From IMG/VR virus record IMGVR_UViG_2877291059_000002: DNA of 14,584 bases. One strand, 5' to 3'. Positions 9,829 to 11,297 of the stretch are shown one piece after another. Each line of letters opens with the position of its first letter. The stretch's first letter is position 1. A program made the position numbers and the translations under genes. Source of the DNA: a virus. Its lineage: Duplodnaviria > Heunggongvirae > Uroviricota > Caudoviricetes. The notes beneath the pieces are model-generated. The model ran no database searches and was not told the origin of the DNA. It was given only the letters and a program-made list of their open reading frames with translations.

Positions 9829-11046
9829 ATGCTTCAAAAGCTAGACGTCGCAGACAGCGTGCGTCGCGAGCTGTCTCCCCGTACCGCGCGTAAACACAAA
9901 GCTGAGTTCGGCCAGTTCATGACGCCTTCTGGCGTGGCCCGTTTTATGGCCTCCTTGTTTCCACCGAGCACAATGAAAACTTGCCGTCTACTGGACGCAG
10001 GCGCTGGTGTAGGCGCACTGTCTTGCGCCTTCCTCGACCGTTGGCTGGTTGGCGAGTTTGGCTTTGAGTCTGTCGAGGCAACAGCCTACGAAATCGACAA
10101 AAAGCTGTGTGGTCACCTTGCGAAGCACTTAACCGGGTACAGGAGAGTGACGCCCCGCATCATCGAAGGGGATTATATTGAGCTGGCAACCGCCGAAGGT
10201 CTACAGTATCGAGGTTATACCCATGCAATACTTAATCCGCCTTACAAGAAGATCAATAGCCAGTCAGCCCACCGGCAGGCTCTTCGCGCTGTCGGTATCG
10301 AGACGGTAAATCTGTATTCCGCCTTTGTTGCACTGGCTGTAGGTGAGGTTGCACCTGGCGGGCAGATAGTGGCCATAATCCCACGTAGTTTCTGCAACGG
10401 ACCGTATTACCGTCCGTTCCGTAATTTCATACTTGAGCGGGCAGCAATCCGCCATATTCATTTGTTCGAATCACGTAGCAAAGCTTTCAGGGATGACGAT
10501 GTGTTGCAGGAAAATATTATCATCCGCCTGGAGCGTGGAGGCCGTCAGGAGGCTGTTACAGTCACAACTTCGACCGATGATAGCTTTTTTGACCTGGTCA
10601 CCTACGAACACCCATTTGACCAGATTGTGTACCCGGACGATTCGGAGCGGTTTATTCATGTGCCGACCACGCTCGAGAAAAGCGCCATTGAGTTATCATC
10701 CGCCGTACAATGTTCGCTGGCTGATATTGGCGTGAAGGTATCGACCGGACCGATAGTTGATTTCCGACTGAAAGCTCATTTGCGCAGCATGCCAGAAGAA
10801 GGAACTGTTCCGCTGATCTACCCGAGCCATTTGAGTATGAGTAGCACTGTCTGGCCTGTGGAAGGTTTGAAGAAACCCAACGCAATCATGCGCAACGACG
10901 AGACAGAAAAGTGGCTTTACCCGAACGGTTTTATTGTGTGGTGCGTCGTTTCTCGTCGAAGGAGGAAAAGCGCCGAGTGGTGGCAAGCGTCGTTGATCCT
11001 GCTACCTTCAGTGAGTATTCAGTGTTGGGATTTGAAAATCACATGA
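9829..11046 (+). CDS. Gamma-class N6-adenine DNA methyltransferase (Eco57I/PstI-type), N-terminal ~370 residues up to a frameshift
   Basis: AAGAGGA ribosome-binding site 5 nt before ATG at 9829; motif X FGQFMTP, motif I LLDAGAGVGAL, motif IV NPPY; the frame breaks near 10925-10935. Confidence 0.8.
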   Translation: MLQKLDVADSVRRELSPRTARKHKAEFGQFMTPSGVARFMASLFPPSTMKTCRLLDAGAGVGALSCAFLDRWLVGEFGFESVEATAYEIDKKLCGHLAKHLTGYRRVTPRIIEGDYIELATAEGLQYRGYTHAILNPPYKKINSQSAHRQALRAVGIETVNLYSAFVALAVGEVAPGGQIVAIIPRSFCNGPYYRPFRNFILERAAIRHIHLFESRSKAFRDDDVLQENIIIRLERGGRQEAVTVTTSTDDSFFDLVTYEHPFDQIVYPDDSERFIHVPTTLEKSAIELSSAVQCSLADIGVKVSTGPIVDFRLKAHLRSMPEEGTVPLIYPSHLSMSSTVWPVEGLKKPNAIMRNDETEKWLYPNGFIVWCVVSRRRRKSAEWWQASLILLPSVSIQCWDLKIT

Positions 11047-11297
11047 ACGTGTTTCATGAGAACAAACATGGGTTACCCGAGGCGCTGGCCCGTGGCTTGG
11101 CCGTGTTCCTGAACACTACCGCAGTGGATAAGTATTTCCGTCGCTTCAACGGGCATACACAGGTCAATGCAACCGACCTCAAGATGATTAAGTACCCAAG
11201 CCGTGACACTCTGATAGAGCTTGGCAAGTGGGCTATGCAACAAGAAACTCTCACGCAAGAACATATTGACGCTAAGCTAGGAGCTCTGACTGCATGA
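10911..11297 (+). CDS. C-terminal part of the same methyltransferase in the +2 frame
   Basis: ORF containing FYCVVRRFSSKEEKRRVVAS continues the protein after the frame break; combined length ~489 aa, typical of PstI/BsuBI-type methyltransferases. Confidence 0.6.
   Translation: MALPERFYCVVRRFSSKEEKRRVVASVVDPATFSEYSVLGFENHMNVFHENKHGLPEALARGLAVFLNTTAVDKYFRRFNGHTQVNATDLKMIKYPSRDTLIELGKWAMQQETLTQEHIDAKLGALTA

Follow-up and report, generated by a model that had tools for sequence, protein, structure and literature searches.

The locus analyzed in this study raises the question of whether a DNA methyltransferase gene that is broken by a frameshift, immediately upstream of an intact restriction endonuclease gene, reflects a mutation in the bacterium or an error in the deposited genome. 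The window, by which we mean the whole 14,584-nt stretch of DNA analyzed, lies entirely within the deposited chromosome of Shigella dysenteriae type 1 strain 1617 (CP006736.1; GCA_000497505.1). It is a defective, IS-riddled lambdoid prophage with an M.EcoGIII/PstI-like restriction-modification system adjoining cI. The features that bear on the question, together with the sequence differences private to this assembly, are listed in the table.

Table. Coordinates of the restriction-modification locus and of the homopolymer changes and tandem duplications in CP006736.1
Feature	Position	Strand	Description
cI-type lambdoid repressor (HTH_3 + Peptidase_S24)	9022-9735	+	Pfam; LexA family protein in homologous E. 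coli loci
N6-adenine DNA methyltransferase, PstI/BsuBI-type, M.EcoGIII-like	9829-11297	+	489 aa if five Ts
Methyltransferase as deposited	9829-11046 and C-terminal ORF ending at 11297	+	Split into two
T4 run	10929-10932	+	Apparent -1 frameshift site; T5 in all other loci compared
Type II restriction endonuclease, BsuBI/PstI-family	11294-12247	+	317 aa, intact; Pfam and SdaI homology
Private homopolymer change, C5 to C4	8334		
Private homopolymer change, T5 to T4	10928		Methyltransferase tract
Private homopolymer change, A-run shifts	1948 and 1966-1968		Tail-fibre remnant ORF shortened from 164 to 86 aa
Private homopolymer change, T4 to T3 in pspA	19160 of L013, the CP006736.1 locus (outside the window)		222 aa split into 115 + 79 aa
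Tandem duplication	3577-4391		Period 406 bp
Tandem duplication	5123-5483		Period 194 bp
Tandem duplication	5895-6262		Period 184 bp
Tandem duplication	3147-3397		Period 126 bp
Tandem duplication	3048-3128		Period 40 bp
Tandem duplication	6315-6395		Period 40 bp

In the deposited sequence, the methyltransferase ORF can start at GTG 9775 or ATG 9829 and reads ...EKWLYPNGFIVWCVVSRRRRK...KIT* to a stop at 11046, and the next frame reads ...PERFYCVVRRFSSKEEKRRVVAS... and is open to the stop at 11295-11297. The switch between the two frames is located in GGTTTTATTG (10927-10936). The truncated product comprises 423 aa from GTG 9775, which is the deposited gene call, or 405 aa from ATG 9829; the latter codon, which is preceded by AAGAGGA, is more plausibly the start. 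A second ORF of 128 aa (10911-11297) begins at a GTG and remains open up to the endonuclease start. With one T added, the codons become GGT TTT TAT (Gly-Phe-Tyr), and the resulting product of 489 aa matches the Sd197 protein ABB62032.1 at every residue. The first-pass annotation had described the broken methyltransferase frame, the intact endonuclease ORF downstream, and a protein of approximately 489 aa that one additional T would restore, and the sequence agrees with it on each of these points. The frame switch is truly present in the deposited sequence; its presence in the organism is the doubtful part.

We analyzed the two proteins for their family membership. The methyltransferase matched the Pfam family Eco57I (score, 35.6 bits; cut-off, 25.3), and its translation contains the AdoMet-binding motif LLDAGAGVG followed by ILNPPYKK (NPPY), as in N6-adenine methyltransferases. 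A PDB sequence search with this protein returned a marginal match to a generic methyltransferase fold (2ozv, E 0.0014). The endonuclease carries both Pfam domains of the PstI/BsuBI/SdaI endonucleases at full length, namely the helix-turn-helix domain PF17728 (BsuBI_PstI_RE_N, E 3.3e-54) and the catalytic domain PF06616 (BsuBI_PstI_RE, E 4.6e-61), and is homologous to the solved SdaI structure (PDB 2ixs, E 1.2e-76). The Pfam domains and the homology of the endonuclease to SdaI confirmed the earlier placement of the methyltransferase in the PstI/BsuBI family. SdaI recognizes the 8-bp sequence CCTGCAGG, whereas the endonuclease in the window is predicted to recognize CTGCAG, as judged solely by its 99%-identical E. 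coli counterpart. The window itself contains no CTGCAG (PstI) site, against approximately 3.8 expected from shuffles (Poisson p of approximately 0.02); this absence fits own-target avoidance in the prophage region, although the statistic is weak.

Over most of its length, the 2.6-kb region had matches in 134 complete E. coli genomes and 97 phage records, and nearly all of the matching records were Stx2a-converting prophages with an identity of up to 99.5%. In these records, the gene pair stands directly downstream of cI and is annotated as one CDS, "Eco57I restriction-modification methylase domain", and then a "BsuBI/PstI family type II restriction endonuclease". The methyltransferase was 99% identical to the protein of the E. 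coli Stx2a prophages and 88% and 81% identical to single-chain homologues encoded on plasmids, and the endonuclease was identical to the E. coli prophage enzyme at 314 of 317 residues. The 122 residues past the shift were highly conserved as far out as Sulfuriferula, which indicates that they are needed.

The best-matching known system is EcoGIII (M.EcoGIII/R.EcoGIII), a PstI-like type II system of the Stx2 prophages of E. coli O104:H4 C227-11 with the homologues M.Eco95JB1III and M.Eco95NR1III. The genes in the window, which sit in the prophage immunity region, follow cI directly, as the EcoGIII genes do in their lambdoid prophage, and the two systems share the operon order (methyltransferase, then endonuclease) and the 4-bp overlap (ATGA) of the methyltransferase stop with the endonuclease ATG. 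The region is 99.5% DNA-identical to that of E. coli 95JB1 and 95NR1, two of the best matches, and the proteins are 99% identical. In the methylomes of these two strains, m6A was present at 100% of the CTGCAG sites and was attributed to the M.EcoGIII homologue (PMC6602927). The domains, the gene order, the annotation of the homologues, and these methylomes together place the locus among the PstI-like restriction-modification systems already known from prophages. It differs from EcoGIII in its host, which is S. dysenteriae 1, in a defective, IS-riddled prophage with no stx genes in the 14,584-nt window, and in 12 substitutions in 2.6 kb; the frameshift is a further difference, and this one is most probably an artifact of a single assembly. 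The spacer upstream of the methyltransferase ATG (approximately 9825-9828) reads AGGATTAGTATG in S. dysenteriae 1 and is one T longer in the E. coli Stx2a prophages. This one-T difference at approximately 9827 was considered as a second error and rejected; it is common to all S. dysenteriae 1 assemblies and is therefore a real lineage difference.

Other parts of the prophage show damage as well, with IS600 inside the DEAD-box helicase gene and additional IS1 and IS3-family elements. The DEAD/DEAH helicase gene of the replication module (7105-7812, minus strand) is truncated by IS600 at approximately 7155. The truncation recurs in every S. dysenteriae 1 assembly and is thus a genuine decay event, unlike the methyltransferase frameshift. 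At the left end of the window, a Mom-like protein gene (PF25680; 289-1026, minus strand) and a gene for a resolvase/invertase-family recombinase (PF00239 + HTH_7; 1218-1811, minus strand) lie beside a tail-fibre remnant, and both look like leftovers of an invertible tail-fibre segment of the Mu or P1 type. The AAGGAGG ribosome-binding site and ATG of a Rha-family gene are directly preceded, at 13077-13112, by perfect tandem copies of a heptamer, (ACCAATC)n. The repeat occurs in seven different lengths among 10 S. dysenteriae 1 assemblies, spanning 63 bp, and in approximately one to two copies in the E. coli prophage L002; it may influence rha expression or act as a typing marker.

We compared the tract with 26 other loci, comprising nine other S. 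dysenteriae 1 assemblies, two E. coli prophages, and 15 IMG/VR contigs. Pairwise and multiple alignments revealed T5 in all 26 loci and T4 in CP006736.1 alone. The methyltransferase, which is deposited as 423 or 405 aa plus 128 aa, was present in each of the 26 as a whole single chain of approximately 490 aa translationally coupled to the endonuclease. No T6 or T3 allele was found in the IMG/VR contigs scanned, and the tract with three to six Ts had no match in the one-genome-per-species contigs, whose species representatives are without this prophage. In a collection of 15 billion proteins, the truncated 423-aa protein (AHA65424.1, "[Shigella dysenteriae 1617]") occurred on one contig only, that of CP006736.1, whereas the intact and otherwise identical 489-aa protein occurred on 125 contigs. 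The exact endonuclease sequence likewise occurred on 125 contigs.

Among the other assemblies, ADUT01000048.1 (L007) is an independent assembly of strain 1617 itself. This identity is based on the private protein EFP69187.1, which is confined to this 210,603-bp contig and is named "SD1617_4808 [Shigella dysenteriae 1617]"; in addition, of nine loci, ADUT01000048.1 alone has the same copy number as the window at the hypervariable heptamer repeat. It carries T5 and the 489-aa methyltransferase. The vaccine strain WRSd3, which was derived from strain 1617 by engineering (PMC11413625), encodes a full-length methyltransferase as well (507 aa from the GTG start). The lesion, whose recurrence in the same strain or clone would mark a genuine pseudogene, was thus absent from both. 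The first-pass annotation had named five Ts in the reads as the sign of a simple assembly error, and ADUT01000048.1, the nearest equivalent to reads of this strain, has five. Because the second assembly of strain 1617 and all of the related genomes carry the intact gene, we conclude that the frameshift is most probably a sequencing or assembly artifact, a homopolymer undercall in CP006736.1, and not an organismal mutation (probability of approximately 0.93).

The remaining differences of CP006736.1 from its relatives displayed the same signature. In approximately 14.6 kb of non-IS DNA, all of the private differences were homopolymer length changes, except two substitutions at the duplication junction 3981-3982, and no private substitution was found away from the IS boundaries and this junction. 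One of the homopolymer changes breaks pspA, a housekeeping gene. The genome of strain 1617 was determined from 454, Ion Torrent, and MiSeq reads and assembled under the guidance of the Sd197 reference, and the published account gives 6409 ORFs for 4.48 Mb of sequence, 1041 "pseudogene ORFs", and just three rRNAs (PMC4445032). The homopolymer indel errors of 454 and Ion Torrent sequencing are single-base changes in runs, private to one assembly, in genes that are intact in relatives; CP006736.1 shows the same, and its differences are the textbook pattern of such errors. The repeats appear to be affected in addition. Six tandem duplications, mostly 95-100% identical, lie in or near the IS1 and IS600 copies; they were absent from Sd197 and ADUT01 and therefore look like repeat misassembly in CP006736.1. 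The IS600 copy in the helicase gene (6355-7076) was approximately 92% identical to the copy at the same locus in other S. dysenteriae 1 strains, and the IS3-family element at the right end (14355-14584) contained dense clustered mismatches. The divergence of these two elements suggests a chimeric consensus from reads of different IS copies.

Some considerations speak against an artifact. The MiSeq reads of the project might have corrected homopolymer errors, and both ADUT01 and WRSd3 derive from laboratory stocks other than that of CP006736.1, so that a mutation private to the sequenced stock is conceivable. Such a recent inactivating frameshift, with the endonuclease silent or inactive or with residual methylation sufficient for survival, would agree with the T4 in the deposited sequence, with the general accumulation of pseudogenes in Shigella genomes, and with the degraded state of this prophage. 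Nevertheless, we consider it unlikely. The independent assembly of the same strain and the derivative strain carry the intact gene, and the other private differences of CP006736.1, including the one in pspA, are also homopolymer miscalls. In type II restriction-modification systems, loss of the methyltransferase in the presence of an active endonuclease is normally lethal; the endonuclease here is identical to that on 125 contigs and has no disabling change, and its persistence without a methyltransferase would normally kill the cell. The first-pass annotation had reasoned from this lethality that, if the lesion were real, the endonuclease would probably be inactive too or the split methyltransferase would still function; the argument from lethality is sound and points to an artifact. 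That the sequenced stock was truly T4 and survived with an intact endonuclease gene is very improbable. If it were true, the endonuclease would have to be silenced in S. dysenteriae 1, or the truncated catalytic domain and the C-terminal fragment would have to assemble into an active methyltransferase.

Two further explanations accept the frame switch as functional, and we regard both as extremely improbable. The shift sits in a homopolymer, and slippage in the T run of a phase-variable (contingency) tract could toggle the methyltransferase and a methylation-dependent regulon; many genes of E. coli C227-11 are reportedly affected in their expression by M.EcoGIII-type methylation, according to work cited in PMC6602927. 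However, the run is only 5 nt, far below known contingency tracts, and the length variation among related strains that would accompany such a mechanism was detected in none of the 26 other loci. The 70 E. coli and phage matches listed all span 2603 nt against the 2601-nt query, and a cell with the methyltransferase off and the endonuclease on would die. Nor is the tract maintained at the DNA level beyond coding need; its DNA sequence differs among homologues, since those on Aeromonas and Sulfuriferula plasmids use GGG or GGC for the glycine, leaving T4 in frame. The other explanation, that the methyltransferase is split by nature into a catalytic and a separate C-terminal subunit, draws on the GTG start of the second ORF and its open frame up to the endonuclease. 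The homologues examined (E. coli, Aeromonas, and Sulfuriferula) are, however, single chains of 486-489 aa with the endonuclease directly after, down to 81% identity, and none of them ends naturally at the position corresponding to 11046 with a separate subunit downstream, an arrangement that the first-pass annotation had considered. Thirteen plasmids are likewise annotated with a single chain and then the endonuclease, the junction motif WLYPNGFYCVVRRFSSKEEKRR shows neither variation nor interruption, and the 128-aa ORF was not found as a called product in the protein collection. Of the possibilities raised in the first-pass annotation, a homopolymer error is thus strongly supported by the T5 in the second 1617 assembly and the intact gene in WRSd3, and neither genuine inactivation nor phase variation is.

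On the reading of the frameshift as an artifact, TTTTT would have been recorded as TTTT during 454 and Ion Torrent sequencing and reference-guided assembly, and the 489-aa methyltransferase would most likely be made whole in the cell. By homology, the enzyme is predicted to methylate CTGC(m6A)G and thereby to protect the genome from the co-encoded endonuclease, which would cleave unmethylated CTGCAG. The system may defend the lysogen against incoming DNA and may stabilize the prophage remnant through post-segregational killing, as judged from its homologues. The restriction-modification system is ordinary and most probably intact.

CP006736.1 is the "complete" reference genome of a vaccine and challenge strain in wide use, and the finding is mainly a caution. 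Miscalls in this assembly break real genes, namely those of the methyltransferase, pspA, and the tail-fibre remnant, and it contains IS elements that appear to be misassembled. Pseudogene counts or claims about restriction-modification status that are drawn from CP006736.1 would be wrong. The underlying biology is that of a decayed S. dysenteriae 1 prophage in which an EcoGIII/PstI-like system has most probably stayed intact; systems of this kind are already known from the Stx phages of E. coli.
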